Positions 2,662 to 64,000 of a stretch of 64,000 nucleotides of DNA are shown one piece after another. A program made the translations under genes and the position numbers. Position 1 is the first letter of the stretch. Each line of letters starts with the position of its first letter. The notes under the pieces are model-generated. The model made no database searches. It saw only the letters and a list, made by a program, of their open reading frames with translations, and was not told where the DNA came from. The DNA is taken from NCBI GenBank assembly GCA_964016885.1, contig OZ024756.1, forward strand, positions 27,094,001-27,158,000, read 5' to 3'. Source of the stretch: Eledone cirrhosa (lineage: Eukaryota).

Positions 2662-2750
<89 letters not shown>

Positions 2751-2838
2751 GTGCATAAAGTAAATAGAAATAACAAAGCAAACGACAGAGTCGTTTGAAG
2801 AAATATATTAGTTTAATGCTTGATATAGTAAGAAAAGA

Positions 2839-2876
2839 ATCTTGATGTTTCGGACACAAGTCCTTCGTCAGAAGAT
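2839..2876 (-). ncRNA. Minimal hammerhead remnant (family copy at 60765-60800)
   Basis: ATCTT CTGACGA A GGAC TTGT GTCC GAAACATC AAGAT; sister copy has GAAACGTT, implying ancestral GAAACGTC. Confidence 0.6.
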
Positions 2877-4225: not shown

Positions 4226-4491
4226 GTCTTGAAAATAAGACATTGTATAATGTAGTCTATGAAACGTAATAAATGAGAGAAGGGTAAAACAGCCAGGATT
4301 GAAACACCTGGGCTGAGGAGGAGGGGGGGGGGGGTTTAAACAAAACAACAACAGGAACAGCAACGAGTAAGAAATAAGGAACAAACACACACAACAACAA
4401 AAATCCATCCTATAAAAAATAAATATTTCTTTAGTGAAATTTAAATGGAAATTTTTTATCTGTGTTTTGATGTTGCTTTACTGCTACTTAC

Positions 4492-4641
4492 CGAACAGAA
4501 TTCGTTGAGGGTGCTGAATAATTGTATAACAAGGTCAATTGTTTTTTCACTTATGTTGGTGTAAACCACATTGAGGAACTGGGCAGTTTCCCCGACGATG
4601 TTGAATGATTTTAGGTTATCCGGCTGTTCTCTCAGATAGTT
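4492..4641 (-). CDS. ITPR: ITPR-like exon, RIH-associated (NYLREQPDNLKSFNIVGET...TLNEFCS)
   Basis: catag/gtaag, 150 nt, phase 0-0; hallmark QNYLRxQ motif. Confidence 0.95.
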
Positions 4642-6959: not shown

Positions 6960-7740
6960 AAGTCTGTTGAAAAAATATCTGAGCTAGACTTATTGTACCG
7001 CCACACAGCCGAGCGATTCTTCCACAGTTCAAAACATGCCTAGAATGCTTCTTCCAGAACGACTCTCAGATCTACCGTCGCAGTCCACACGATATCCTCC
7101 TAGCTCTCAAAGCAGGAACCTTTCAGTGACATCTTCATTCGTGGCAACAATTAGAGGTTGGAAGGAGCCACGTCTAGAGAGCGTTGTGAAGGAGCAAAAA
7201 ATTATATTAGAATGATCCCTGGCTTACCATCACTGCAAGACGTGCAAAATATTGTTTTAACTAGTATGACACACAAAAATTGTTTTAACTAGTATGACAC
7301 ACATATTGAGAAGAACACTAGCCTTGGCTAATAAGCTTTGGTTTATCTGCGATGAGTGAGCTGGGGTGATGTCATGATGCAGCTGTCAGTTTTGCAAGGC
7401 CCACAGATCCATTATTTTGCACTGAACTGCATCACAAAGACGTCGGAGGATTCCTGGTATGACTCCTTTGTATTTGTTCGTCCTTCTGTTGTGTGTTCAT
7501 GATGCACAATACCTCGGTAGTCTAAGAAAATAGTCAGCATAATTTTGATTTTGTTTCGCTCTTGACATGCTCTTTGGGGCATGAAGTACCTCCACTTGTA
7601 TTGATTGAGCTTTAGTTTCTAAATCGTACTCATACACCCACTAGTTATCAGGGTATTCAAAAACTCAAGGTCCTTGGCAATATTGGGCGAAAGGAAAATG
7701 CGACTATAAAATAATGCAACACTTCACACGCTGGCAGCCT
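6960..7740 (-). pseudogene. Decayed mariner-type transposase, interrupted by a Dong-like fragment
   Basis: Minus translation LHHDITPAH, SLDVAPSN..LLPRMKMSLKG with stops. Confidence 0.65.
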
Positions 7741-9197: not shown

Positions 9198-9252
<55 letters not shown>

Positions 9253-9260
9253 TATATATA

Positions 9261-9302
<42 letters not shown>

Positions 9303-9366
9303 TAACAGATTAAAGTTTAAGCAAAGAATCGCTGCTTTCACCCTTAACGGGATCTTATATATATAA

Positions 9367-12684: not shown

Positions 12685-12910
12685 TATATATATATAGTAA
12701 TAATAAATGTGAAGACTAAAATCCAAAGAGGGCTCGATAAGGATAAATATATATAAAATATATAAGAACCCTAGAGCAAATATTTATTAAAATAACAAAT
12801 TAAAGTTTAAGCAAAGAATCGCTGCTTTCACTCTTAACGGGATCTTCTAGTTTCAGAAGATGCTGTTAAGAGTGAAAGCAGCGATTCTTTGCTTAAACTT
12901 TAATCTGTTA

Positions 12911-12958
<48 letters not shown>

Positions 12959-14162: not shown

Positions 14163-14296
14163 GGGAGGGTTTTTTTTAACAAAATGAAAAATAACCGAGG
14201 TGTCCTACACGAGTGAAAGTATAAAGAAAAAAAGATGAAATCGAAAATGCAACTGGAGACTTATTTAAAAAAAATATATATATATTTATTTGGTTC

Positions 14297-14332
14297 CTTT
14301 ACCGGTTTCGCAGTTCTTCTGCTTTTCAAAAG
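14297..14332 (-). ncRNA. Hammerhead-like motif with U3:A8 core (inverted copy 14412-14447 +; third copy 56551-56586 +)
   Basis: CTT TTGAAAA GCAG AAGAA CTGC GAA ACCGGT A AAG. Confidence 0.6.
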
Positions 14333-15704
14333 TAGAGTTGAGATGGAGGGTCTGTGGTTTTTCTCACATCTGAGATATGAGAAAAACCACAGACCCTCCA
14401 TCTCAACTCTACTTTTGAAAAGCAGAAGAACAGCGAAACCGGTAAAGGAACCAAATAAATATATATATTTAAAAAAAAATAAGACTCCAGTTGCATTTTC
14501 GATTTCATCTTTTTTTCTTTATATATATATACATATATATATATATAATTTGTTTATATATATATACACATCAAATTTTATTTCCTCTTTCCAATATAAA
14601 GTGTGAAACTAATAAGACTTTTTATACCTCTGTTTCTTGTCTCCTTGAACTATATATATATATATATATATGAAAACAGGGAGAAAGAGACGATTATTAG
14701 GAAGAAAAATATATTTTTTTCCTTTATATACATATAGTTATGGGTAGAATCAAAAGAAAAGAGCAATCAACACAATGAGGAAGTAGAATATTTAGAATAA
14801 CAATTTGATTTAACTCCGCACTATCAGTGGTATTAAGTCGATTACACATAAATCTTCAGATGCATTTAGGTTTCGGGCCAATAATCTTCGTTATAATCTA
14901 TGTTTTAAAAACATAACAATAATGACAAAATAAAACAAAACGGAATAATCTTTTTAAAATAATTAGCTAGAAAAAGATAATTCTGACATATATACTTTCA
15001 TAACTATTACATACATGAAGATATATAGATATACGCATATAGCCATATAGACATGCACACATACTATATATTATCCTAAATACGTGCAATACATGCAGTA
15101 CAAACACACAGATAGACATGCACGCACACACATATATATATATATAGGGCATGGCTTAGTGGTTAGAGCATTGGGCTTTTTGAATTACAGGTACAACATC
15201 TCTATATGACTGTTAGCTGAACACCCTAATCACTAAGCCTTTCCAATGCAGTGACAGTACTTTCAGCAAAATAATTGGCTGATACCGCCCATTACATTAT
15301 GCTATCATTTGTATCTGTATCTTCTTTTTGATACATCTTTTCATATTGTGCATATATGTATGGACCCATACCTCTTGGTTGTGTAGCAGGGGTGCTTTGG
15401 ATATTTAAAACCTGGTGGAGCCCATCTCAGGATTTGAATACAGCGCCAAATTTTTCTTTTTGAAGGAGTGAGAAAGTGTGTGTGATAAAGCGGAAGTGAG
15501 AAACGGATATGGAGGTCAGTACTGGACTAGTATTTTTTTATCACCTTTGAAAGGATGAAGGACAAAGTTGACCATAATGGGATTTGAACTCAAAGAGTGC
15601 AATCTAAGAATGATTACCACAAACCATTCTATCTGACGTTCTAACAATTCTACGAATTCACCACTTTACTATTGTTTGGCAGTCAATATATATATATATA
15701 CACA

Positions 15705-20890: not shown

Positions 20891-21574
20891 TATATATTTA
20901 TATATATATAGGAAAAGAGTCAGGACCCCTGTTTCGACAGCTAGATCCGAACTCAGAGTTTGGATCTAGCATTCGAAACGGCCGGAGCTCAGCCATATAT
21001 ATATATAAATACAAGTTAATATAAATTAATATATGATAAACACCTAAGTGTTTGTATTGTAAATGACGAAGTTAGCTAGAATGAAATCAACTAATTGAAT
21101 TAGTTGATTTCATTCTATTTAACTTCGTCTTTTCCAATACAAACACTTAGGTGTTTATCATATATTAATTTATATTAACTTGTATTTCACGGCTCAGAAA
21201 TGCTTCTTTGTTTGAGCTAATTAATTGTAAATGACTCTAAATATAATATGATTTATATATATATATATATACATATATATATCATAGCATGATTGACATT
21301 AATTACCTTTATGAAAAAAAAAAAAAAAAAAAGAAAGGTCTGGCATATATTCAATATCAATTATATAATAAAAGGCTACAATAGTCTTCTTAGATAATTT
21401 TAATAGTTTCAACAGCTGCTGTATACTTTGGGCCATAATCTGAAGCAAACTTATTCATAAAAAAGAAAAAGAAAGTCGACTGATAATCAAACCTGTCACC
21501 CATCCTATAATATATTTTAATTTTACAGCATCTACAGCTTGTTATAAACACATTTCTTGTGTATGGATTAAGCT

Positions 21575-28757: not shown

Positions 28758-28942
28758 CAGATAAATCGATATGTATATATATATATATATATATATAAAT
28801 AAAATATAGTTATGTAATAAACAACATAAGATATATACATCATATATATATATAAATATATATAAAATATATAATAGGTCTGTATTATACATAGAGCACT
28901 CTTCTTCCCTTTACTTTTTCTATGGAAATACTGAACACATAA

Positions 28943-29003
<61 letters not shown>

Positions 29004-33363: not shown

Positions 33364-33602
33364 CTTACAGATCTGTCTTGATCAAGAACATAAGCGGCCT
33401 TCTTGAAGTTCTGCATGATATATTTCATGACCAGGGTTTGGTTGTGTTTCAACGTCACATCGAGTCCTTCCACTTTGACCAATGAACGTAAAAGATCAAG
33501 GAATTCGGGTGCTTTCTCTTGGTTCTCAGAGGCAAGAAGAACTAGTTTCTGGATTTGCCTAGAGTTGATTTTCAGACAGCTAAGCTGGTTTCCTATGAAA
33601 AC
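33364..33602 (-). CDS. ITPR: ITPR-like exon, RIH domain (VFIGNQLSCLKI...KHNQTLVMK)
   Basis: gaag/gtatg, 239 nt, phase 0-2; within track ORF 33318-33752. Confidence 0.92.
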
Positions 33603-33824
33603 CTTCAGTGTCGTAACAATAAGAGAGACAATAGAATGATAGAATTTGTGTTTGGAACACCACTTTATTTCCCACTTTTTTTCTTTCACTATGCACACGC
33701 ACACACATATACATAAACTTACACACACACATATATATATATACACACACACATATATATATATTTACATACACACACACACATATATATACCCACATAC
33801 ACATATATAAAGTTTTTACCTTAC

Positions 33825-33986
33825 CTCACGTAAGGCTATGGCCAGTTGAGATTCTACAACCTTCACTTCAAGAAGTGTATCAAGCTTTTCAAACATCTCG
33901 CTTTGTACTTGATGGTTTTCCTTGATCAACAATTTTAAGAGATACAATGTTTTCTCCAGAATGGTTTTCATCCCTCCGTACTGATC
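33825..33986 (-). CDS. ITPR: ITPR-like exon, RIH domain (DQYGGMK...KENHQVQSEMF...ALRE)
   Basis: taag/gtaag, 162 nt, phase 0-0. Confidence 0.92.
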
Positions 33987-34020
33987 CTTAAAAATAATAA
34001 CATTATATATATATATATAT

Positions 34021-36636
34021 ATGGACCTAAATGGTCACGTTGGACAACATTGTGACGGCTACGACGAAATCCATGGAGGCTATGGGTTTGGTACTAGAAA
34101 TGAGGAAGGCTCCAGAATCCTGGAATTCTGTGATGCAAATAACCTAACTATCTGTAACACTAACTTCAAAAAACGTGACAATCACCTGATCACCTATAGA
34201 TCCGGGGAACACACAAGCCAGGTAGATTATATCCTTACCAGAAGACGTGACAGAGTGTCTGTTGTTAACACTAAATCCCTCCCCCATGAAGAATGCACCT
34301 CCCAACATAGACTGATAATTAGCGACCTCATAGTCAGGACGAGACGTACTCGACAACAGAAGAGGACTATCCTCAGGAGGAAAATATGGAAGCTAAAGGA
34401 CCCCACAGCCAGGAATAAATTTCAAAGCATATTACTTGATGCTTTCGACAGTAAGGAAGAACATTTAGAGTCGGACAATATAGAGGGAGAGTGGGAATTT
34501 CTGAAAGCAAACCTGCTGTTGGCGACAGACGAGGTCTGTGGCTGGAGCAGGCCTGTAGGCAGGAGGAGAGTAACATGGTGGTGGAACAGTAAGGTGGAGG
34601 GGTCAATTAAGGCCAAAAAGCAGGCTTGGAAAGTATGGCGGGATGGGGGAAGTAGAGAGGACTATCAAGTGGCCAGGAGGGAAGCTAGGAGACAAGTGTA
34701 CTTAGCAAGAAGGGAAGCTGAGGAAAGAAAGTTCAAGCATGTTCTACAACGCGATGACCAAAAACGTGAGGTGTTCAGGATTGCTAGGCAATGCGTCAAG
34801 GAAAACCGTGATATTGTCGGGGAGAAGTGTGTACTAAACGACGATGGCACACTTGCCATCACCGACGCTGATAAGAAGGTAGCTTGGAAGTGTCACTATG
34901 AAAGGCTTCTAAATGAGGAGAATAATTGGGAGAAAGGCAGTCTCCCCCATATCGACCCAATAGAGGGACCAGCAGTGTTAGTCGAGGGGAGTATAATAAG
35001 TAAGGCAATCAAGGATATGAAGACTGGTAAGGCGGCTGGGCCTTCGGAAATAGTTGCTGAGATGCTGAAGGCATCTGGCACGGTGGGACACACCATGGTC
35101 ACCCGCATAGTTAACCAAGTCGTACAGAACGGGGTTGTTCCGAAGGACTGGCATAGCAGCATCATCGTTAACTGTTATAAGGGTAAAGGAGACGCCCTAG
35201 ATAGGAGTAACTATAGAGGCATTAAATTAATCGACCAGGTCATGAAGGTCACGGAAAGAGTAATAGCGCAACTAATCAGAGAGAGAATTGACCTAGATGA
35301 AATGCAGTTCGGGTTTGTGTCAGGCAAAAGTACCACAGACGCTCTTTTCATAGTACGACAACTACAGGAGAAGTACCTAGCTAAAGGTAAACCCCTCTAC
35401 TTAGCTTTTGTCGACTTGGAGAAAGCCTTCGACAGAGTCCCCCGCTCCATTATCTGGTGGGCTCTTAGAAAACTAGGCGTTGACGAATGGCTTGTGAGGG
35501 CTATACAAGCCATGTATAAAGAAACAGTCAGCAAGGTTAGAATTAACAACGAATATAGTGAAGAGTTTAGCGTAAAAGTCGGCGTCCATCAGGGCTCTGT
35601 TCTCAGTCCACTACTATTTATTATTGCCCTTCAGGCTATAACAGAGGAGTTCAAGACAGGCTGCCCATGGGAACTCCTATACGCAGACGACCTGACACTC
35701 ATAGCGGAATCAATGGCCGAGCTAGAGAAGAAATTCCAAACATGGAAGCACGGCCTAGAGTCAAAAGGACTTAAAATTAACCTGGCTAAGACCAAAGTAC
35801 TAGTTTGTAGGAAAGAAAACAAGGCGGCGGTCCCTTCGGGGAAATGGTCGTGCTCGGTGTGTAGGAAAGGCGTAGGTAGAAACTCCATTTTATGTCCTAA
35901 ATGCAAAGTATGGGTGCATAAAAGATGTAGTGGGATCACAGGTAAGCTAACTAAGAACATAGATTTTACATGTGGCCGGTGCTCTGGTGCAATAAGTAGC
36001 AGCAAGTGCCCACAAACTACTAGCTCTTTCAATTGCGCAGAGGGTTCTATAGAAATAGTGGACAGCTTCCGTTACCTGGGCGATAAAATCAGCAGTGGGG
36101 GAGGGTGCTCTGAAAGTACTGTAGCTAGAGTCAGAACTGGTTGGAAAAAGTTCAGAGAGCTTATACCACTATTAGCTGCTAAAGGGTTCTCACTAAAAAT
36201 GAAAGGCAGGTTGTACGATGCCTGCATACGAACAGCAATGCTGCATGGCAGTGAGACCTGGGCATTGTGTGCAGAGGATATACGCAGACTAGAGAGGAAC
36301 GAAGCTTGCATGCTCCGCTGGATGTGTAACAGTAATATACGTGAACGGCAAAGCATAAACGAACTAAGGAATAAATTAGAGATAAGAGGGATCAGATGTT
36401 GTTTACTCGAGAGAAGGCTACGTTGGTATGGACACGTGATGCGCATGAAAGTCGATAGCTGTATAACAAAGTGCAGGGCAATAAAGATAGACGGTAGTCA
36501 CGGAATAGGCAGACCTAGAAAAACCTGGGACGAGCTGATAAACTCCGACATCACACACTTACACCTCTCCAAGACAATGTCACTGGACCGAGACCTTTGG
36601 CGGTACTCAGTAACAGAGAAGACCCGCCTTACCTAA
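34021..36636 (+). CDS. RTE-clade LINE ORF, 5'-truncated: C-terminal part of AP endonuclease, reverse transcriptase, embedded PHD-like zinc finger
   Basis: DLNGHVG/VDYIL/SQHRL (APE), NYRGIKL, FVDLEKAFD, GVHQGSVLSP, YADD (RT); CxxC..CxxC..HxxC..CxxC; uninterrupted 871 aa. ATG is created by the flanking (TA)n. Confidence 0.95.
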   Translation: MDLNGHVGQHCDGYDEIHGGYGFGTRNEEGSRILEFCDANNLTICNTNFKKRDNHLITYRSGEHTSQVDYILTRRRDRVSVVNTKSLPHEECTSQHRLIISDLIVRTRRTRQQKRTILRRKIWKLKDPTARNKFQSILLDAFDSKEEHLESDNIEGEWEFLKANLLLATDEVCGWSRPVGRRRVTWWWNSKVEGSIKAKKQAWKVWRDGGSREDYQVARREARRQVYLARREAEERKFKHVLQRDDQKREVFRIARQCVKENRDIVGEKCVLNDDGTLAITDADKKVAWKCHYERLLNEENNWEKGSLPHIDPIEGPAVLVEGSIISKAIKDMKTGKAAGPSEIVAEMLKASGTVGHTMVTRIVNQVVQNGVVPKDWHSSIIVNCYKGKGDALDRSNYRGIKLIDQVMKVTERVIAQLIRERIDLDEMQFGFVSGKSTTDALFIVRQLQEKYLAKGKPLYLAFVDLEKAFDRVPRSIIWWALRKLGVDEWLVRAIQAMYKETVSKVRINNEYSEEFSVKVGVHQGSVLSPLLFIIALQAITEEFKTGCPWELLYADDLTLIAESMAELEKKFQTWKHGLESKGLKINLAKTKVLVCRKENKAAVPSGKWSCSVCRKGVGRNSILCPKCKVWVHKRCSGITGKLTKNIDFTCGRCSGAISSSKCPQTTSSFNCAEGSIEIVDSFRYLGDKISSGGGCSESTVARVRTGWKKFRELIPLLAAKGFSLKMKGRLYDACIRTAMLHGSETWALCAEDIRRLERNEACMLRWMCNSNIRERQSINELRNKLEIRGIRCCLLERRLRWYGHVMRMKVDSCITKCRAIKIDGSHGIGRPRKTWDELINSDITHLHLSKTMSLDRDLWRYSVTEKTRLT

Positions 36637-37566: not shown

Positions 37567-37600
<34 letters not shown>

Positions 37601-37725
37601 AAATATGGAGAAAAATACTGCAGGTAGCGCATGGATAACATGTAATAAAATGAGTCCCTCATCAGTGATTTGCCGACGATCATAGATATTTCATTGCATT
37701 AAAAATCATATACCTCACGTCGGTG

Positions 37726-37780
<55 letters not shown>

Positions 37781-37930: not shown

Positions 37931-38532
37931 TATGGACACGTGATGCGCATGAAAGTCGATAGCTGTATAACAAAGTGCAGGGCAATAAAGATAGACGGTA
38001 GTCACGGAATAGGCAGACCTAGAAAAACCTGGGACGAGCTGATAAACTCCGACATCACACACTTACACCTCTCCAAGACAATGTCACTGGACCGAGACCT
38101 TTGGCGGTACTCAGTAACAGAGAAGACCCGCCTTACCTAAATATATAGTAAAACCTACTCCAGCCAGTAGGCATCTCTAACAAATACACCCCGTCCCACC
38201 ACCCCCACCCGATCCACACCACCCCGTTCTATGTAAAGTTATGTTGGTGCCGCGCCATCGAGGCCGAAACAAATGAGATCGTGTAGGTGTCACGACAAAA
38301 AAAACACACAGTCCACGCTGTAATGTGGCCGTGTAGGCAACACGGTAAAAACCTCCCAGACCCACACTGTAAATGTGGTTGGTGTTAGGAAGGGCATCCA
38401 ACTGTAGAAAACCTGCCAGACAGTCCTATGCAAGCAAGACAATCACTCTTGCCTCAAGTGGGACTACCCCCGTCCAAACCCATGCAAGCGTGGAACACGG
38501 ACGTTAAACGCTGATGATGATGATGATGATGA

Positions 38533-38534: not shown

Positions 38535-38584
<50 letters not shown>

Positions 38585-38728
38585 ACCAAATGTTAATAAG
38601 GTTCATTGATTACTCAATGAATATAGTTTTACAATAGATTCAAAGCACTCAACAGGAAAGTTTTCTGGAGTTATTAATATTATTCAAAATATTAATAAAT
38701 GAAGACGTTCACATAATCAAAATATATG

Positions 38729-38790
38729 TTTTATTATATATATTTCGAAGGTACTGTGTTGTTTTTTCAGTACGTCTTCATCAGATAAAA
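38729..38790 (-). ncRNA. Type-I hammerhead ribozyme (left arm; partial inverted copy at 38824-38878 +)
   Basis: TTTTAT CTGATGA AGAC GTACTG..CAGTAC CTTC GAA ATATATAT A ATAAAA. Confidence 0.65.
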
Positions 38791-38924
38791 TACATGAATT
38801 GATGTATGACATACCTCAACAGTCTGATGAGGATGTACTGAAAAACAGCACATTACCTCCGAAATATATATAATAAAACATATATTTTGATTATGTGAAT
38901 GTCTTCATTTATTAATATTTTGAA

Positions 38925-39009
<85 letters not shown>

Positions 39010-41635: not shown

Positions 41636-42128
41636 CTGGAAAACAAAAGTACATATATATATATATATATATATAAATATATATGGATTCACCGAACATT
41701 TATTATAATGCTCGGTGTGTTTGTAAACAAACATCCCGTATTAAGCCGTAGTGTCCAGCAACCATCGTTGCTCGTTTGTTCAATGAAATTTCGTTTCATT
41801 TTTTGCGTTTATAAATATATAATTGAATATAAAAGAGAGATAAACACAGTGTTCAAATCGTAAGGGACCAGATTCGCTTTGTATTTCTTTTATATATCGG
41901 TTTGTATTTCTTTTCTTAATTTATTCTTTTAAATTGAGTCTGGCAAACCCTATTATCCATAGTTACTATTTTTTTCACCCTAGCGAATCTGGTCCCTTAC
42001 GATTTGAACACACATATGTATATATCTGTGTTTATCTCTCTTTTATATTCAATTATATTACACGGCCTGGAAAAATCTCTTTCCTTGAGCTATTTAATTG
42101 TAAGAGACTATTTTTAGTTTCTAACTCA

Positions 42129-42192
<64 letters not shown>

Positions 42193-43190
42193 TATATTAT
42201 ATTTTGAGATAAAACTCTCAGTCGTTTACAATAAATCAGCTCCAAGAAAGGGGCATTTCCGAGCAGTTAAAAATACATTAATATATATGATAAACACAAA
42301 ACGTGTTTGCATTGCAACAGACAAAGTTAGCTATCAATGAAATAAACTAATTAAAGTGAATACAATTTGTCTGTCTCGATATAAATCAATAAAGACAAGC
42401 TTATATTGGCAAAGGCCGTGATTCCTGGACAAATTTAAATTTCAAAATCCAAACCCGCTCCATAGATGAATTTGAACTTCGAAACCCAAATATGTTTCGC
42501 AACGATGGTACATGAATTGAAAAATAAAGAGAATCGAAATGGAAATTAGTTTATTTCATTGATAGCTAACTTTGTCTGTTGCAATGCAAACACGTTTTGT
42601 GTTTATCATATATATATATATATATGTATATATATTATTAGAAATGTAAGCTAGAAAATATTCTTACATATATATATATATATATATAGTTAATATTGAA
42701 CCAAAGATAAAAGTTGTATAAATTGCTGATGTACAAACACATTAGTTAGTAATTGTTTCTACTTTTGGCACAAGGCCAGCAATTATCCCAGTACATTACT
42801 GGTACTTTATTTTATCGACCCCGTAAGGATGAAAGGCAAAGTTAACCTCGGCGGGATTTGAACTCAGAATGGCAAGGGCCGTAACTCTATGTGTCAAAGC
42901 ATGGCGTCCGACCCTCTACCGATACTGCCAATCCACCACCCTTAGTTAATAATGTAAGAAATAGTGAGAGAATCTAAAATGCGTGTGAGAAATATAGTGT
43001 TTAAAAGTAATGAAAGAAATATTAGCTAAAAGTGTGTGGTAGGCAGTATACCATAAGTATGATATGATTGTTAATTAAAACTTTGAGAGAGACAAGTAAT
43101 TTCTCATATGTACAAGAGAAAGATAAATATATACGTTAGTAATAAGGTTTAAAAGTTAACAACAATATGTAATGAAATAGATAAACTAAC

Positions 43191-43324
43191 TCAGCCAGTT
43201 CATCGAGGATCTTGCTCATAAGCTTCACTTGTTGGTCATTCAGTTTGGCTCGGGATAATCGTCTCAGGATAGGTAAGGCACGTTGTACTTCTCTGTGCAC
43301 ACGGGCAGAATCTTGGGTCAGAAC
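43191..43324 (-). CDS. ITPR: ITPR-like exon (VLTQDSARVHREV...ILDELA)
   Basis: aacag/gttagt, 134 nt, phase 0-2. Confidence 0.9.
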
Positions 43325-43461
43325 CTGTTTCAATTTTCAAATATATAAAAAGCAAAATGTTACTCTTTGTTAACGATTGTTAAAGATTAATTTCCTCCCA
43401 CTATACTCCAAATTAAATTTCTGAAAATTGAAATGTAAAATGTAAAATATCTGAAAGTTAC

Positions 43462-43569
43462 CAAAGCTTGGGATGCTAGTTTGAACATGTCATCTTGTGA
43501 GGAATACATCTTATTCATGATATCAAGTGCTTTAATTACCATCTGGTCATATTTGTAGTTGGAGAGATC
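43462..43569 (-). CDS. ITPR: ITPR-like exon (DLSNYKYDQMVIKAL...SQAL)
   Basis: tacag/gtaac, 108 nt, phase 0-0. Confidence 0.9.
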
Positions 43570-44008
43570 CTGTAAGAAGAGAAACACGTGTGAGGCTATC
43601 AATACTTTTGTTTAGAAAAATGCTAAGAGAAATAATTCTTTCTATTTTTGGCACAAGGCCAGCAATTACCCCAGTGTATTACTGGTGCTTTATTTTATCG
43701 ACCCTGTAAGGGTGAAAGGCAAAGTTAACCTCGGTGCGATTTGAACTCAGAATGTAAAGGCTCATAAAAACAATATTATAGAATGAAGGTATAACTGGAG
43801 TTTAATAAAACAAACACGAAAGGAGATTATAAAGTGCTATAAAGAAAGGATGGAATGGGCATGGCTGGAACGCCTTTAGTCATAGTTTTGCTCCTTCAAA
43901 TTTAAGATGAGGCTAAAAAAATGATAACAACAAAAAAAAAAAGAAGAAAAACGATGGTTCGCTTTCCTACAGTCCTAACACAACCTTCAATATCAATGAG
44001 TCACTTAC

Positions 44009-48657: not shown

Positions 48658-48712
<55 letters not shown>

Positions 48713-48858
48713 GGTGTCACCAAAATATGTAAACACATTTTGATCAGAATGTTTTTGAAGTATGCATACGTTTTGGGGACACCCTATATGTATAAAATAT
48801 ATATACACACACAGGGTGTCCCCAAAATGTATACAAACTTCAACAGCATTCGAATCAA

Positions 48859-48957
<99 letters not shown>

Positions 48958-49044: not shown

Positions 49045-49200
49045 TAACGAAGGAAATGTGGTAAGTAACCAGGTGGACCATAACGCACCAAAGTACTCAA
49101 TACTTAGGGTAGTAGAGTGGGTAATAGGAACAAGTAAGACCCCGACGACTGAATTAGCCGTCGAAACGGCTTGAGCTCAGCCGTCGGGGTCTTACTTGTT

Positions 49201-49259
<59 letters not shown>

Positions 49260-49408
49260 GTATATATATATATACATGTACGAGGGTCGACTGAAAATTT
49301 CATAGGCTGACTATGAAGGGTAATGCTAGGGCTGTGAAATCTTGCTACCGTCGCATATGTAAATACAGATTTGAATTCGAAAAGGTCTCTGGCGCTATTC
49401 TAACTAAC

Positions 49409-49562
49409 CTTTCCGTCTTTCCTTGTCTTTGACTTTATCTTCGGGAAATGGAATGTCATGGCGACCGTCTAATAAACTAAGAAGTGGCTGCATGAGTTGT
49501 TTTACATCCTCCATGTCCATGTAGTAACCAAACTTCACCAAATAGTGCAGTAACCGCAACAC
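49409..49562 (-). CDS. ITPR: ITPR-like exon (VLRLLHYLVKFGYY...LLDGRHD)
   Basis: tgtcag/gttagt, 154 nt, phase 0-1; resembles ITPR1 VVNLARNLIYFGFY. Confidence 0.92.
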
Positions 49563-49746
49563 CTGACAAAACAGAAAATATATTTTAAAAAGAAATTGAT
49601 ATTAAATGAAAAATACAAGTTAAATGAGAGAAAACTAAATTGGATGGGTGTTCTGCTGATCGGGGCTGGGTTTATGGAAATACAAGGGTTGGCTAAAAAG
49701 TTTATAAGCTGACTATAGAGGAGTGATACTGCCAATAATAATAATA

Positions 49747-50722
49747 ATTGTTTCTACTTTAGGCACAAGGCCAGCAAATACCCAGTGCATTACTGGTACT
49801 TTATTTTATCGACCCCGTAAGGATGAAAGGCAAAGTCAACCTCGGCGGGATTTGAACTCAGATCGTAAAGGGACGTAACTATGCTGGAAAGCATGGCGTC
49901 CGACCCTCTACCGATACTGCCAATCTACCGCCCCTAATAATTATAATAATGGTTTCATATATAGGCACAAGGTCAGCAATTTTGGGGTAGAGTAAAGTTG
50001 ATTAAATCCACCCCAGTATATTATTGGTACTTTATTTTATCGACCCCCGTAAGGATGAGAGGCAAAGATAACCTCGGCGGGATTTGAACGCAGAACATAA
50101 AGGGTCGAAACTCTATGCTGCAAAGCATGGCGCCCGACGCTCTACCGATACTGCCAATCCACCACCGTAATAATAATAATAATGATTTCTAGTATAGGCA
50201 CAAAGACTGTAATTTGGGGGGAGGGGAAAGTCGATTAAATCGACGCCAGTGTATTACTGGTACTTTATTTTATCGACCCTGTAAGGATGAAAGGCAAAGC
50301 TAACCCCGGCGGGATTTGGACTCAGATCATAAAGGGCCGTAACTCTATGCTGCAAAGCACCGTGTCCGACCCTCTACCGAGACTGCCAATCCACCGCCCT
50401 AATATAATAATTGTTTCTATTTTAGGCACAAGGCCAGCAATTACCCAGTACATTACTGGTACTTTATTTCATCGACCCCGTAAGGATGAAAGGCAAAGTT
50501 AACCTTGGCGGGATTTGAACTCAGATCATAAAGGGACGTAACTCTACGCTTCAAAACATGGCGTCCGACTCTCTACCGATACTGCCAATCCACCGATAAT
50601 AATTGTTTCTACTATTGGCACAAGACCAGCAATCACCCAGTGCATTACTGGTACTTTATTTTATCAACCCCGTAAGGATGAAAGGCAAAGTTAACCTCGG
50701 CGGGATTTGAACTCAGAATGGC
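49747..50722 (-). mobile_element. Head-to-tail cluster of five tRNA-derived SINE copies
   Basis: Each copy on minus strand: A box TGGCAGTATCGG, B box GAGTTCAAATCC, core GCCTTTCATCCTTACGGGGTCGATAAAATAAAGTACCAG, (ATT)n tail. Confidence 0.9.
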
Positions 50723-55335: not shown

Positions 55336-56705
55336 AGATGATTGAATCAGATTACAAATGACTCCACAATATTCTGATTGACAGAGTGTGTATATTAATG
55401 ATGAAAATTGTGCTGATGATAATGGCGGTGCTATTAATGTTATTGATAGTAGTTGTTTTGGAATCATGGCATTAAAACAAAAATCGTTAAAATATATTGA
55501 TTTCTGCTCAATAATCTCTAGTCCACATGCCAGAGTTAATTATTTCATGCATTTGGTTCTGGTATAACTGTCTTATTTAGGGGCCTATTGTAAGGAACAA
55601 AAATGTATTTGGTGCATAAATAATTAGGACAGGAGCTCTATATGCTGTGATGGCAAATGGCCTTGGGGTATTTGTCTCCTGAGTCCCAAACCACGGTGGT
55701 GTTTACTTTGCCGGTCATACTTCCGCATTCACAAAATAAAGTACCATAAACCCCCTCCCACTGCAAAGTGGTCGTGGAGGTACCACGGCAAAAAAGCACC
55801 CAACCCACACTGTAAAGTGGTCGTGTAGGCGCTACGGAAAAAAAAGCACCTAGCACTCACTGTAAATTAAATGGTTACTTCAAAATGTATCTAGCAAGCG
55901 CAAGCTGCACACATGCGCACAGTAAAGTTTACAATAGAGAATTTAAATACATTTTTCTCAGTATAACGTCGAATGTGATCATATAACTACACGCAGGCGC
56001 AAATTTCAGTAAAACAAATTTACATTCATGCAATGGATACCGGGTGAGATTTTGTTTATATTTCATATATATTCAAGTATTATGTCATATGAATTGAACA
56101 GTAATTTTGTTGAATGTTTCTGTTATACCGTGGAAATATTTTATCTTCTGATAGAGTTACAAATAGGATACTTTATGTATGATTTGATGCTACTGTATAC
56201 AGATTTAAATATTGAAACATAGAAGAAAAATTGTCTTCTAAAGTATCTTAAAATTTTAGTTACCGTATTACCCGGCGTCGAAGACCCAACTTTTTCCCTA
56301 AAATAAGTCTCAAATATCTACCATGCGTCCTGGAGACCGAAGGTGGTTTATTATTTTTTTTTTTAAATTTTTGCTTGTCAAAATTAAGACGAAGCATCTT
56401 CAGCGCCGGGAAATAAGATATTTTAAGAAAAATTCTTTAATATAAATATGAGTGGCTAGTTAAAACCGGTTTGAACAGAAAGAGGTGAGGAAATTCCAAA
56501 GTAGAATTGAGATGGAGGGGAAAAACCGCAAACTCGCCATCTCAATTCTACTTTTGAAAAGCATAAGAACTGTGAAACCGGTAAAGGAAAAAAATAAATA
56601 TTCTTAAAAAGACTCGTTACATTTTCGATTTCATCTTTTTTCCTTATACCTTCACTCGTGTAGGACATCTCCTTTTTTTAATTTTGAAAAAAAACCCCTC
56701 ATTTT

Positions 56706-58237: not shown

Positions 58238-58447
58238 AATAAATAAATAAATCCAAACTGTGTTAAAAACAAAAGACAAAGAGTGAATAAATATTAGATT
58301 CAAATATTTCAATCAGCTAAAAATTCACTCCTGCAAACCACACACCAATAGCCAAATCCATTGAGAGATGTTGAGGTTGAGATCTAGTAATAACTAGATG
58401 CTAGATAGTTCTATAGGTATGTAGATTAACAGGTAGAGAGATTGAAT

Positions 58448-58520
<73 letters not shown>

Positions 58521-58643
58521 GGAGGTGAGTTTTATTGTAGTACAATAAAGCAATGCAGATATCGGATAAGAAGCACTCTACAGTTTGTAGGACTGGAGTA
58601 TGCATAATATAAGATCAAAAGATGGTTAAAGGAGTTCCATGTA

Positions 58644-58710
58644 TTTTATTATGCGCATTTCAAAAACAAACATCATCATGCAATAATATTTGTGTTTTCA
58701 TCAGATAAAA
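58644..58710 (-). ncRNA. Type-I hammerhead ribozyme (left arm of palindrome)
   Basis: TTTTAT CTGATGA [long stem II] GAA ATGCGCAT A ATAAAA. Confidence 0.78.
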
Positions 58711-58811
58711 CAGGAGAACATGATATGAAGGCTAAAAAACACTTGTGGATAGTGCAGTTTTAAATCAACATATCCACAAGTGTTTTTTAGCCTTCATATC
58801 ATGTTCTCCTG

Positions 58812-58878
58812 TTTTATCTGATGAAAACACAAATATTATTGCATGATGATGTTTGTTTTTGAAATGCGCATAATAATA
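58812..58878 (+). ncRNA. Type-I hammerhead ribozyme (right arm of palindrome)
   Basis: Inverted copy of 58644-58710, one stem-I change. Confidence 0.75.
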
Positions 58879-58910
58879 TACATGGAACTCCTTTAACCAT
58901 CTTTTGATCT

Positions 58911-58968
<58 letters not shown>

Positions 58969-59046
58969 TACATACATATATATATATATATACAAACACA
59001 CACATATATATATATACACACACATATATATATATATATATACACC

Positions 59047-59124
<78 letters not shown>

Positions 59125-59203
59125 CAGTGAAAGAGGAGAGGGTGAAAAAGAGTGATGGAAGGTGAGAAAGAAAGGGGTGTGTGTGTGTGCATGACATAAA
59201 TAA

Positions 59204-59245
<42 letters not shown>

Positions 59246-59497
59246 AAGTGAGTCCTTCATCAGTGACCCTCCAACCGTCCTCGGCATTTCATCGCTTTAA
59301 GGGCCATATGCCTCAGGTTGTTACTCTAGCGTCCCCCTTTATTTACGTGTCCCAACGACTTTTTTTAGCCGTTGTTCGCACCAACCTGAGGCATATGGCC
59401 CTTAAAGCGATGAAATGCCGAGGACGGTTGGAGGGTCACTGATGAAGGACTCACTTTTTCATATGTATCCCATTTGCAACGCCGCAGCTCCATTATT

Positions 59498-59550
<53 letters not shown>

Positions 59551-59577
59551 ATGTAATAAACAACATAAGGCAATTAT

Positions 59578-59635
59578 TCCATTTACCAGTGGTTTCTTAA
59601 AAGCAAAAGGTTTTGCTTTCAATCCTCAGAATGAA
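59578..59635 (-). ncRNA. Type-I hammerhead ribozyme (left arm of palindrome)
   Basis: Reverse-complement copy of 59721-59778. Confidence 0.82.
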
Positions 59636-59720
59636 AAAATCCTGGTTTGTTTATTGAATTTGGATCTTAAAAAAAAGGATCTTTTTTAAGATCCAAATTC
59701 AATAAACAAACCAGGATTTT

Positions 59721-59778
59721 TTCATTCTGAGGATTGAAAGCAAAACCTTTTGCTTTTAAGAAACCACTGGTAAATGGA
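59721..59778 (+). ncRNA. Type-I hammerhead ribozyme, canonical core (right arm of palindrome)
   Basis: TTCATT CTGAGGA TTGAAAGCAAAA CC TTTTGCTTTTAA GAA ACCACTGGT A AATGGA. Confidence 0.82.
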
Positions 59779-59993
59779 ATAATTGCCTTATGTTGTTTAT
59801 TACATAATAATAATTAAGCTCTGTTGCTTACATAGAGCACTCTTTTTTCCTGGACTTTTCCGACGGAATTACTTCATTTATATATATATATATAGATAGA
59901 TATATAGATATAAATATATAGATAGATAGATAGAGAGAGAGAGAGAGATAGAAAAAAAGAGAGAAAGAGACAGGTTGAACGTGAATATCATAC

Positions 59994-60032
59994 CTGGATA
60001 TTTTCATTCGATCCCAAAGAAGAATCAGGAGG
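59994..60032 (-). CDS. ITPR: Probable ITPR-like small exon (PPDSSLGSNENIQ), phase 0-0
   Basis: ttccaattctcag acceptor, CAG|gtatga donor, 39 nt, joins in frame to exon 50891-51007; no recognisable motif. Confidence 0.55.
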
Positions 60033-60165
60033 CTGAGAATTGGAATGAGTTAAAAGCAAAAGAAAATGTTCAACAAATGCAACTAAGGTGAAAAATACAA
60101 AATATACAGAAGACACACCATTTAGCTGACCAGACCATATATATAGGCAGACATAGTAAATACAT

Positions 60166-60218
<53 letters not shown>

Positions 60219-60233
60219 TAAATATATATACAG

Positions 60234-60305
<72 letters not shown>

Positions 60306-60350
60306 ATAATAATAAATGTGAAGACTAAATCCGAAGAGGGCTCGATAAGG

Positions 60351-60386
<36 letters not shown>

Positions 60387-60591
60387 CCTTATCGAGCCTT
60401 TAATCTGTTATTTTAATAAATATTTGCTATATGGCTTTTATATATATATATAAATATATATAAAAGCCATATAGCAAATATTTATTAAAATAAAAGAATC
60501 GCTGCTTTCCCCCTTAACGGGATCTTCTGAAAGTTTCAGAAGGTCCCGTTAAGGGTGAAAGCAGCGATTCTTTGCTTAAGTTTTAATGTTA

Positions 60592-60669
<78 letters not shown>

Positions 60670-61005
60670 TGCATGTATGTAAAAGGTAAACAGAAATAAA
60701 AAAACAAACGGCACAGTATATGGAGGGTATATATTAGTTTAACGCTTGAAATAGCAGGAAGAGGGTCTTAACGTTTCGGACTCTAGTCCTTCATCAGGGC
60801 GGAATCGGAACATTTTTTTTAGACAAAATTAACAGGGTCATTCATATATATATATTTACTTTTTAAATATGTATGCATACATACCTTTATATTCAGCCAC
60901 CGAACCAGACCAAATATACAGGCAGATGTAAGTAAATACATATACATACACAATATAAAAAACAGCAACTAAAATAGTCCTTCGTTAGTATGAATAGAAG
61001 AGCTG

Positions 61006-61068
<63 letters not shown>

Positions 61069-61162
61069 TAAGATGGTAGTATGGACGAAACATTTGAGAG
61101 GGCACGGTACGACAGAGCTCCTGTTATCGCACCACCAGAATTAATATATTTGTATTATACAA

Positions 61163-61209
<47 letters not shown>

Positions 61210-61486
61210 GAATCAAAAAATTGATCGTAGTACGTAGTTTCTGAAGACTGTAGCTCATTTTATCGATATAATTTTGACCAACCGCTAAGTCACAGGACAT
61301 AAGCACACAACATCCGATGGACATCCGTACAGTTTCAATCTACCAAAAATTTCACTCAGAAGTTATTGGTCCACCCAAGGCTATAGCAAAAGCCACCTTC
61401 CCAAGGCCCTACTCAATGAGGCTACCACGAAGCTACAAAGCAAATTCCTTAAGCGCACAGATTTGTCTGTGTGTCTGGGCATATGA

Positions 61487-61532
<46 letters not shown>

Positions 61533-61632
61533 AAATAGTAAAAAGGAAAAATTCAGTAGAAAATGGTGGAGCGAGATTTTTAGTATAATATCAAAACATT
61601 TATTTATAAAGTGGGTATTTTCGCATTTAATA

Positions 61633-61670
61633 GTGGTACCGGTTTCAGCATTATATGCTTTTTCAACGGC
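61633..61670 (-). ncRNA. Hammerhead-like motif with U3:A8 core, stem I decayed
   Basis: TTGAAAA AGCAT ATA ATGCT GAA ACCGGT A. Confidence 0.5.
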
Positions 61671-61802
61671 GGAAGTGCAAAGTACAGTTAAGTTATATAT
61701 ATATAGGGTACCTCCCCACCAAATGTATACACACTTTGATTACCTGTACAGGCAATATTTATTAAAAAGCTGTTGAAATGTGTATACACTTTTGGTGACA
61801 CC

Positions 61803-61895
<93 letters not shown>

Positions 61896-64000
61896 TATAA
61901 GGTCCAAAATCCGAAGAGGGCTCGAAAAGGATTATATATATATGTATAGAGCAAATATTTATTATTAGTACAGAATAAAGTTTAATCAAAGAATCGCTGC
62001 TTTCATCCTATTACGGGATCTTCTGAAACTATATATTTAATTACATAATAAACAACACAATATAATTATTCCATTACATTTGGCAATGGTAATATTATAT
62101 TGCGTTGTTTATTATGTAATTAAATAGCTCTGTACAATACATAGAGCACTCTTCTTTCATTTACCTTTTCTACAGAAATACTTAACATATATATAAATAT
62201 ACACAAAATAACGAGAATGGATTGAAAATTCAAATTAGTAACGTTATGTTTCAAGCTCGATGTGTGTCAAAAATCAGCAAATAAATCGAACAGATTCATC
62301 AAAGGTGAAATCCATATGGAATCAAGAATTAAAATATTGGATAAACTCTTCCGGTTTATTTTATGAGTGCTAATACACTGAGGAATTCTGAAGGGATTTA
62401 AAACATTTCTATTCATCTTACACATGTTTCAGTTATAACAATGTTATCTTGATGCTCGGACGGTTTTTTTAAAGGAGATATCTCTCTTTCAAAATTTATT
62501 TATGTATGTTTTTGGTTTCTTTGACCATATAAAGGAGACAAGAAATTATGTGTTCTTGTAGGTTATTCGGTTCTATTCGTATCTTAGTATAAGGTTCTGC
62601 TCTTATGATAATTGTTTTTACTTTTGGCACAAGGCCAGCAATTACCCAGTGCATTACTGGTACTTTATTTTATCGACCCGGTAAGGATGAAAGGCAAAGT
62701 TAACCTCGACGGGATTTGAACTCAGACCGTAAAGGGACGTAACTATGCTGGAAAGCATGGCGTCTGACCCTCTACCGATACTGCCAATTGACTGCTCTTA
62801 TAATAATGTAGCTTAAGAAAATTCTTCAATTTACCATATTTCTTTGCATTTCATTTGTTGAAACGTGTAAGACCATTAAAATTGCCATATAAATTCCTAT
62901 AGAATTCCTGGATATATTATATATTATAACTTACATTGGTTTATAATAATTTTGCTTTTTGTGAATAAAATAGTTTTAGGACAGTTTTGTTTAGCTGATT
63001 TTGAATACGATAAGTTTTTGTCTCAGATTAATTGCTAAGCACCACAAGCTGGAAATACCAGATTACTCATTTTGGGTTATTTTGGGAATGTCATCTAACA
63101 CATTAATTCTTTCTTTCACACTTTTCTGTTAATTTGAAATTGAATTAGAATGCACAATTATTTTTAAAGCTGATAAACTAGTTAGTTTCTTGTACTCAAA
63201 CAAACAAAATTAAAGGAGGGGCTCTGAAATGCTGTTGTTGGCCATATGGAAAAAATATATGCCTGTCATATGCCAATTACGAAACTATAGAGAAAGTTAT
63301 AGAAGTAATTAAAAGAAACGAACGTATTATGTGCATATCTGATAGAAAAGACTAAAAGAAATAGAAATGATGTTTATATTTGATAGAAGAGATTGTTGCA
63401 AGGCTCATACTTCATAGGCTGACCATGAGGGAGTAATGCTAGAGCTGTGAAATCTTGCACACATTAATTTCAACACTTCTTATTAATAATAACATTGTTT
63501 CTTTCCAGGGACTATGTTGGAAAATAAACCTCATTTGGTCATTCCATAAGAGTATCTTGCTCAGCCTATGAAAGTTTCAGCTGACACACGTATATCGTCA
63601 ATAAATGAACTGAGCCTTTTACTGAAGCTTTATATAAAAAAAATATTCCCCTTATATTTGCTCAACATTTCTTTCTACTATGCCAGCTATTCTTTGACTA
63701 TTAGTGTTTATTTCTGAGGATAGAGCATAGTTTTCTATATTGAAAGAGTCTATATTGGAATTCCGAATTCATTTTTGGTATTGCCGGCATTTGTAAAATC
63801 AGATACCGCTCTCTTACACATGCTAAACATATGTCTACAAGAAACAGGATTCATAACATTTTTTAATAATCGTTTTATTGCATTCAACTTGATTTTCGTC
63901 GTTTTTTTGAGCTTTTTGCTAAAGGTTTGCATGAATAAATATTCTCATTATATCTGCGAAGTATTTATTTATGTAATCATATACGTATATATATATATAT

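Follow-up and report, generated by a model that had tools for sequence, protein, structure and literature searches.

What process lays down three inverted duplications side by side, two of them with a hammerhead ribozyme motif on each strand? We addressed this question for a locus of Eledone cirrhosa within a stretch of 64,000 nucleotides (contig OZ024756.1, positions 27,094,001 to 27,158,000), referred to here as the window, in which the three units are named P1, P2 and P3. PLE-type insertion is overall the very probable origin, with each unit a separate, dead-on-arrival insertion of the terminal repeat (pLTR) of a Penelope-like element (PLE). It is likely that a ribozyme appears on both strands only through the hammerhead-bearing end having been laid down twice, head to head. 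P1 to P3 are an ordinary, well-preserved new instance of an insertion pattern that has already been described.

The original prediction had proposed three adjacent inverted duplications with arms of about 140, 85 and 130 bp, and all three are present, with arms of 148, 83 and 131 bp that hold a single mismatch overall. The P1 arms (58604-58751 and 58771-58918) are complementary at 147 of 148 positions with 19 nt between them, and those of P2 (59238-59320 on the minus strand and 59382-59464 on the plus strand) at 83 of 83 positions, with a non-mirrored centre of 61 nt (59321-59381). For P3 (59544-59674, minus strand, and 59682-59812, plus strand), whose arms had been described as apparently perfect, complementarity is indeed 131 of 131, with 7 nt between the arms. 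Inverted 20-mer seeds numbered 586, against 0 in 5 shuffles, and the window contains 19 inverted repeats with arms of at least 20 bp.

All three units are asymmetric, because a non-mirrored tail extends each of them on one side only. Each follows the order (TA)n, tail-less arm, junction, arm with one-sided tail, (TA)n. The 85-bp tail of P1 (58519-58603, minus strand) begins directly after a TA run at 58453-58517 that is likely the target, and the tails of P2 (59465-59500, 36 bp) and P3 (59813-59878, 66 bp), both on the right side and on the plus strand, each end at a TA run. The P2 tail aligns with the end of a relative at 37596-37728, and the P3 tail is common to relatives at 62034-62202 and 28810-28950. 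In P1, the pLTR-like tail-bearing arm extends from 58604 to 58773 on the minus strand and the inverted arm starts at 58771 on the plus strand, giving a 3-bp overlap (58771-58773, microhomology), and the inverted tail-less arm is 22 bp shorter than its partner toward the 5′ end of the element. The 7-nt centre of P3 (59675-59681) repeats the neighbouring GGATCTT.

All three units sit in (TA)n, and a target duplication is unreadable within a TA run. The predicted separation by (TA)n applies to P2 and P3, between which lies the only spacer that is a plain TA run (59501-59546), and only in part to P1 and P2, whose gap of about 320 bp is mostly (TA)n and (CA)n plus about 70 bp of other sequence. Positions 58400-62200 hold 16 of the window's 81 runs of at least 8 TA, where 4.8 would be expected by length. 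Pairwise blastn comparison found no similarity among P1, P2 and P3; judged by their letters, the three units are unrelated repeat ends. A single composite element was also considered, and rejected since the units share no similarity and their tails point in different directions.

Relatives with this layout also occur in the window, those at 62034-62202 and 38578-38932 being older units. The P3-family relative at 62034-62202 has the same layout with 33-bp arms and no hammerhead, the segment at 28810-28950 is related to the ends of P3, and the P2-family relative at 37596-37728 again shows the same layout. A fourth tailed palindrome at 38578-38932 carries a hammerhead-like motif in each arm, with stem III AUAUAUAU. 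The arms agree at 96% over their outer 92 bp or so and diverge farther in, across the hammerhead, where both sides of stem II have changed; the 5′ strand of stem I is missing from the right motif. In its tail and in the sequence flanking the hammerheads, this palindrome resembles P1.

A descriptor for type I hammerheads, applied to both strands of the whole window, matched only at +58818, -58704, +59727 and -59629. These four matches place hammerheads in both arms of the first and third palindromes, just as the original prediction stated, and 30 dinucleotide shuffles gave 1 match in total. The descriptor is strict and misses hammerhead-like motifs that we saw by eye at 38784/38824, 60797 and 2871. 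Rfam at its gathering score returned 0 matches and did not call the motifs, and at E values up to 10 no ribozyme family was found among 102 matches; these sub-threshold matches (hairpin-driven miRNA-type and others) were taken as uninformative. The left motif of P1 (58642-58712, minus strand; C3 at 58704, GAAA at 58661-58658) has a palindromic stem III, AUGCGCAU, and a predicted cut after 58650 (AUA), and the right motif (58810-58880, plus strand; C3 at 58818) is predicted to be cut after 58872. The sole P1 arm mismatch, at 58877, falls in stem I of this plus-strand hammerhead and shortens the stem from 8 to 4 bp. In P3, the motif of the tail-less arm (C3 at 59629) has its predicted cut after 59584, and that of the tail-bearing arm (CUGAGGA at 59727) has a stem II of 11-12 bp, a palindromic stem III, ACCACUGGU, and a predicted cut after 59772 (GUA). 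The distance from C3 to C3 is 114 bp in P1 and 98 bp in P3. P2 has a CUGAUGA box in each arm (CTGATGA at 59263 and 59439) without a GAAA box after it, and therefore no complete type I hammerhead; read by eye as a permuted hammerhead of type II or III, in P2 as well as in its relative at 37596-37728, the stems fail to close. In every arm the hammerhead, or the CUGAUGA box of P2, is oriented from the centre outward; the arms of each unit therefore face each other head to head, and both of their 3′ ends lie on (TA)n.

Variation within the families spares the catalytic core and mostly keeps the helices paired among the variants listed (40 of 61 for P1 and 40 of 65 for P3), an analysis that covered the left motif of P1 and the two motifs of P3, without the mirrored rows from the right arm of P1. 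Only N7 varies among 13 core positions in these listed variants, and 9 of the 10 listed helix variants in the left motif of P1 and the right motif of P3 keep their pair, all of them through one-sided changes to or from G-U; the variant at 58656 breaks stem III. In the portions of PMC4209133 that treat them, PLE hammerheads are type I with a long helix II and a small palindromic helix III, as are the P1 and P3 motifs with their predicted dimers, whereas helix II here is longer (at least 11-12 bp) and A-U rich, and the G10.1-C11.1 pair of the PLE hammerheads is absent in both P1 and P3. The same source reports that PLE hammerheads did not cleave as single motifs and cleaved at a low level as dimers.

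In folding predictions the motifs do best as dimers. Homodimer cofolding forms intermolecular stems I and III for the P1 left motif, at -34.7 against -22.6 kcal/mol for two monomers (12.1 better), and for the P3 right motif, at -32.8 against -24.8 kcal/mol (8.0 better). Isolated monomer motifs are no more stable than shuffled sequences (z -1.22, -0.34 and 0.20), a point against PLE-type stubs. The P1 and P3 hammerheads are predicted to be of the dimer-dependent Penelope type, and would act in the RNA of the parent element. The full palindromes fold at about -207 to -257 kcal/mol with 95-99% of positions paired, and stems I, II and III then have, on average, a pairing probability of 0.0 on both strands; in a single arm alone, the probability of stem II is 0.86 for P3 and 0.05-0.43 for P1. 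Whichever strand is transcribed, the antisense arm is made first, and the read-through RNA is predicted to fold into a duplex of 130-150 bp that leaves the hammerheads silent.

Short reads bear on whether the units are real and how many there are. Part of the stretch is contained in 20 of the 24 sequencing runs listed, none of which is recorded as RNA, and the best-matching run, X1, may be the source sample. Together with its tail, P3 was found in 2554 contigs of X1, 36 contigs of X4 and 4357 raw reads of X22, and P1 with its tail in 4603 contigs of X1, 492 of X5 and 33 of X6 and in 5556 raw reads of X23, so that both families are also seen in other samples (X4, X5, X6, X22 and X23) under two other organism labels. 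X15, a run guessed to be RNA, gave 0 contigs on P3, a zero that can be false and says nothing on expression. Summed depth in X1 reaches 6e5 for P3 and 2e6 for P1, which is itself no copy number, and contigs with a single junction have depths of 6-55. Such depths imply that both families number in the thousands of copies or more; the reads were examined for P1 and P3, and the results on copy number and junctions apply to these two. The P1 tail is part of its repeat family, at family-level depth in 4 of 4 runs, and 240 raw X23 reads start at 58604 directly after (TA)n, at the tail-less end. From the family-level depth over tails and these 240 reads it follows that these families have two fixed outer ends.

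The turn-round points, unlike the outer ends, vary among copies, with many junction positions at depth 6-55 in both families. Copies that continue past the turn-round points of the window account for 343 reads behind 59673 and 379 behind 58773; beyond 58773 they run into sequence absent here, and loose ends behind this position occur in 4 of 4 runs. At the P3 centre depth falls to 45 in X1 (at 59679; the arms stand at about 1e5) and to 2 raw reads in X22, which comes from another study, so the junction is locus-specific and present in short reads. A further turn-round junction, 59646-59717, is covered by 5 reads with 3 starts in X22.

These observations weigh on an artefactual origin of the palindromes, whether through long reads that folded back on themselves to give chimeras or through faulty assembly. 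Such an origin would suit the perfect arms of P2 and P3, and also the listed contigs, none of which spans a whole unit, and the listed pieces, none of which crosses the P1 junction; the possible identity of X1 with the source sample weakens its independence. The mirroring nevertheless ends at family-defined ends, the host flanks are unmirrored and the tails one-sided; the P3 centre is found both in short-read contigs and in raw reads from another study; other turn-round junctions occur in short-read contigs and raw reads; and older, diverged units of the same layout lie in the window. We regard an artefact as highly unlikely.

We analysed skip joints in more copies, using 15 of 21 for P3 and, for P1, 14 of the 15 listed out of 17, a count that leaves out one opposite-strand joint; arm identity is ambiguous in a joint unless the contig includes the tail. 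Among the joints listed, both arms keep the hammerhead C3 in 7 of 15 for P3 and 5 of 14 for P1, one arm keeps it in 1 of 15 and 6 of 14, and neither arm does in 7 of 15 and 3 of 14. Given this variable retention, the paired ribozymes are a by-product of where copying stopped and reflect no conserved design. Exactly mirror-symmetric joints make up 5 of 15 for P3 and 1 of 14 for P1, and three of the joints listed (59568-59815, 59604-59846 and 58557-58776) join arms that share no sequence; in these non-overlapping joints the shorter side is supported by 20-28 letters.

Variable turn-round points also speak to the resemblance to viroid-like RNAs, which the original prediction had itself called superficial. 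If an ambisense viroid-like RNA replicon, with a ribozyme for each polarity, had used the palindromes as templates or left them as relics, one would expect what each strand of P1 and P3 shows, namely a single hammerhead opposite its own antisense in a rod paired at 95-99% of positions, an arrangement described in sections of PMC8865084 for PLMVd and ELVd, where hammerheads of both polarities face each other. This likeness is one of shape. P1 and P3 differ from these viroids in being genomic DNA with arms that are exact copies of one sequence, in forming no multimer and in having a dimer-type stem III. Each of them has a single predicted cut site per strand per unit, and therefore no unit-length circle, or other unit-length RNA, would be released. 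In addition, helix probability is 0.0 in the full fold, the turn-round points often drop one or both motifs (many family junctions among the joints listed keep one hammerhead or none), and the fixed ends abut (TA)n as in other retro-insertions. A replicon origin is therefore extremely improbable on these counts, and the analysis does not support the comparison. The locus instead serves as a caution, as Penelope-type inverted insertions automatically yield rods with a ribozyme on each strand that can mislead searches for viroid-like RNAs.

A similar judgement applies to a DNA-transposon origin, in which MITE-like or foldback elements would target TA and contain ribozyme-like motifs by chance. 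Long inverted repeats with TA flanks are what such elements would leave, and mariner-type pieces are indeed found in the window (a Transposase_1 match). The ends of the units are asymmetric, however, with a tail on one side, copies with a single arm run into upstream family sequence, and the hammerhead core is conserved. The lack of a fixed centre largely refutes this reading, which we consider to have very little probability.

Within P1 and within P3, the two arms have a further property in common. At 8 of 8 (P3) and 7 of 7 (P1) chosen family-variable sites, the letter of the window is the same in both arms, including one shared letter carried by only 9% of X1 depth; naive products for the shared letters are 0.004 and 0.039, with linkage ignored. 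This agreement points to one source for both arms, and arm-to-arm conversion after insertion would look alike.

Penelope-like elements offer a ready precedent for such a head-to-head arrangement. Passages in PMC8557442 describe EN+ PLE insertions as having an inverted, 5′-truncated copy beside the pLTR and a tail of 30-40 bp at one end, and report a microsatellite bias in Neptune and Naiad; the inverted truncated pLTR with its one-sided tail in endonuclease-bearing PLEs is also covered in part of PMC3846280, in which the inverted pLTR of Adineta Pen2a is 37 bp shorter than the direct copy, with which it has a 15-bp overlap. The locus shares with the EN+ PLEs (Penelope/Poseidon, Neptune and Nematis) of these accounts the head-to-head pLTR pair, the tail at one end only, the shorter inverted copy that overlaps the direct one, the microhomology junction and, in P1 and P3 but not P2, the hammerhead in the pLTR; its (TA)n setting is in keeping with an AT-rich or microsatellite target. 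Unlike those elements, there is no ORF at the locus and no ORF start at stem II in P1 and P3. Dual min-HHRs on opposite strands, about 100-700 bp apart in Schistosoma, had already been put down to truncated PLEs in 2014 according to a passage of PMC4209133. Within the window, the older units 62034-62202 and 38578-38932 have one-sided tails as well, which fits PLE-type insertion. The expectation that inversion is routine in Penelope-type families is supported here by one-sided tails, fixed outer ends, variable turn-round points and the literature.

How would a PLE-type insertion produce both arms? We find it moderately probable that priming was double-ended. A Penelope-type reverse transcriptase with a GIY-YIG endonuclease, encoded elsewhere, would cut both strands of (TA)n, and each DNA end would prime reverse transcription of element RNA from one source. 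Starting at a distal site would give the arm with the tail, and starting at a proximal site the tail-less arm; both cDNA copies would stop early and be joined through microhomology or by a short patch copied from a template. Later insertions would then strike the (TA)n runs newly flanking the unit, giving clusters of unrelated families. The part of PMC11167929 that deals with purified PAc protein reports that it cuts and extends both target strands and prefers AT-rich DNA, that reverse transcription starts at two RNA sites, which delimit the tail, and that insertion in vitro does not need hammerhead cleavage.

Double priming also draws on the three listed joints whose arms share no sequence, which are not directly obtainable from the fold-back of a single cDNA, whereas non-overlapping joints of this kind could be later deletions. 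Contrary to two independent truncations, mirror-symmetric joints fit snap-back or later cruciform deletion better, and deletions at a later time could imitate either pattern. Against PLE-type insertion as a whole, the tails of P1 and P3 (85 and 66 bp) exceed the published 30-40 bp, and only that of P2 (36 bp) lies within it. The competing possibility is self-priming, in which the first cDNA stops and its 3′ end folds back onto a few complementary bases, copying itself up to a proximal end that the endonuclease defines. This has been proposed for PLEs in a section of PMC3846280 and would account for the 3-bp overlap of P1 with its 19-nt centre, for the exact symmetry of 5 of 15 P3 joints listed and for arms that are identical down to rare alleles. 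Two annealing cDNA ends, however, explain microhomology equally well, the three listed joints lack any sequence common to both arms, and in the in vitro results cited from PMC11167929 both target strands were cut and extended; self-priming therefore seems unlikely to us, though less so than the readings dismissed above, and other routes share the small remainder. The high copy number of the families makes them material for studying how PLEs produce inverted copies, from two primed ends or by self-priming.

PLE-type insertion leaves a second question, that of the parent element. No GIY-YIG or PLE ORF was found in the window by Pfam, searched with 86 of 91 filtered stop-to-stop frames and two scanned separately; the search left out three antisense frames inside an RT ORF. 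The sole reverse transcriptase found in the window has a LINE-like layout and lies 22 kb from the locus. Scans of metagenome contigs with the P3 motif and with the P1 motif gave 0 matches each. In P2 and its relative at 37596-37728, the ATG inside CUGAUGA is in a frame that stays open to the end of the tail, which resembles PAc, though about 20 open codons are weak evidence. In P1 the frame from the CUGAUGA ATG stops at the GAAA box, and P3 has a stop in the same position, which likewise ends the frame from the ATG in the family variant of its box. Both differ from PAc in this respect, so that P1 and P3 could be riders without coding capacity, similar to retrozymes.

We hold it possible, if on balance doubtful, that P1 and P3 derive by truncation from retrozyme-like units with a hammerhead and no coding capacity, a few hundred bases long and with tandem or circular RNA, which borrow a Penelope enzyme, and not from the ends of protein-coding PLEs. 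The insertion mechanism would be the same and only the parent would differ, so that this overlaps with a PLE-stub origin and does not exclude it. The missing ORF start at the P1 and P3 hammerheads, the long tails, the very high copy number and a long stem II conserved via pair-keeping changes all suit such a parent, as does a statement in part of the preprint 10.64898/2026.07.22.740005 that animal retrozymes derived from pLTRs. As far as described in portions of PMC7229834 and of that preprint, metazoan non-LTR retrozymes are likewise short, apparently non-coding, abundant and PLE-linked, with a type I hammerhead. Unlike them, P1 and P3, known here from DNA alone, form no head-to-tail repeat of their units within the window and have no pair of same-strand hammerheads per unit. 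No joint that goes back was found among those listed (15 of 21 for P3 and 15 of 17 for P1), and the loose ends behind 58773 differ between runs. One short back-step, from 58629 to 58607, is present in the P1 read data.

A stronger form of the proposal would have P1 and P3 as protein-free ribozyme RNAs that ride the Penelope enzyme, with double-ended insertion filling this cephalopod genome with thousands of perfect hairpins of 100-300 bp; this we consider improbable. If it were true, intronic hairpins would be a major source of dsRNA for editing or silencing, each hairpin would be a one-step route to the opposed-hammerhead rod of viroid-like RNAs, and the unit with diverged arms at 38675-38932 would represent an older stage. 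If the families are expressed non-coding riders, they would be relevant to dsRNA and editing in cephalopods. The P1 to P3 families were not found described in the literature searched, whose scope did not extend to supplements, subscription papers, Repbase and Dfam, and therefore they may already be catalogued there. An octopus repeat annotation reports recently active Penelope families (PMC13282606), and the words hammerhead, ribozyme and retrozyme have 0 occurrences in its main text.

With respect to the surrounding genome, an IP3-receptor-like gene on the minus strand is indicated by a RIH_assoc match at 4459-4641 (E 1e-12) and a RIH domain at 33819-34034 (E 0.008); at about 33400-33620, residues 1271-1336 of ITPR1 are weakly matched (E 0.14). 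Further candidate exons at 43139-43611 and 49407-49601 (minus strand) were recognised by eye only, and two candidate host exons near the locus gave no useful structure match. The N-terminal part is missing and would lie at higher coordinates, and therefore the P1 to P3 locus is likely intronic.

The window also holds other repeats. Single Penelope-type minimal hammerheads of a further family, with a short GC stem II, lie at 60670-60800 and 2744-2871 (minus strand), and the copy at 60797 is truncated immediately ahead of its CUGAUGA box and has no stem I. Another family, with at least 4 copies in the window (60300-60600, 12695-12938, 9203-9356 and 61879-62030), consists of short nested palindromes next to TA runs, in which no hammerhead core was seen. 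Long inverted units without a detected hammerhead are present at 14220-14523 (with a relative at 56494-56645), 21007-21187 and 42281-42615, 41817-42058, and 49124-49205. An uninterrupted frame of 883 codons at 33985-36636 (plus strand) contains a reverse transcriptase and a PHD-like finger and is presumably an RTE-type LINE; its C-terminal end is repeated at about 38000-38140. Short inverted ends flanked by TA at 48709-48865 and 61784-61806 are of a type we take to be mariner, and a partial DDE transposase match is found at 7415-7618. Finally, a SINE-like repeat of 200-230 bp forms a tandem array at 49781-50717 and is also dispersed through the window.
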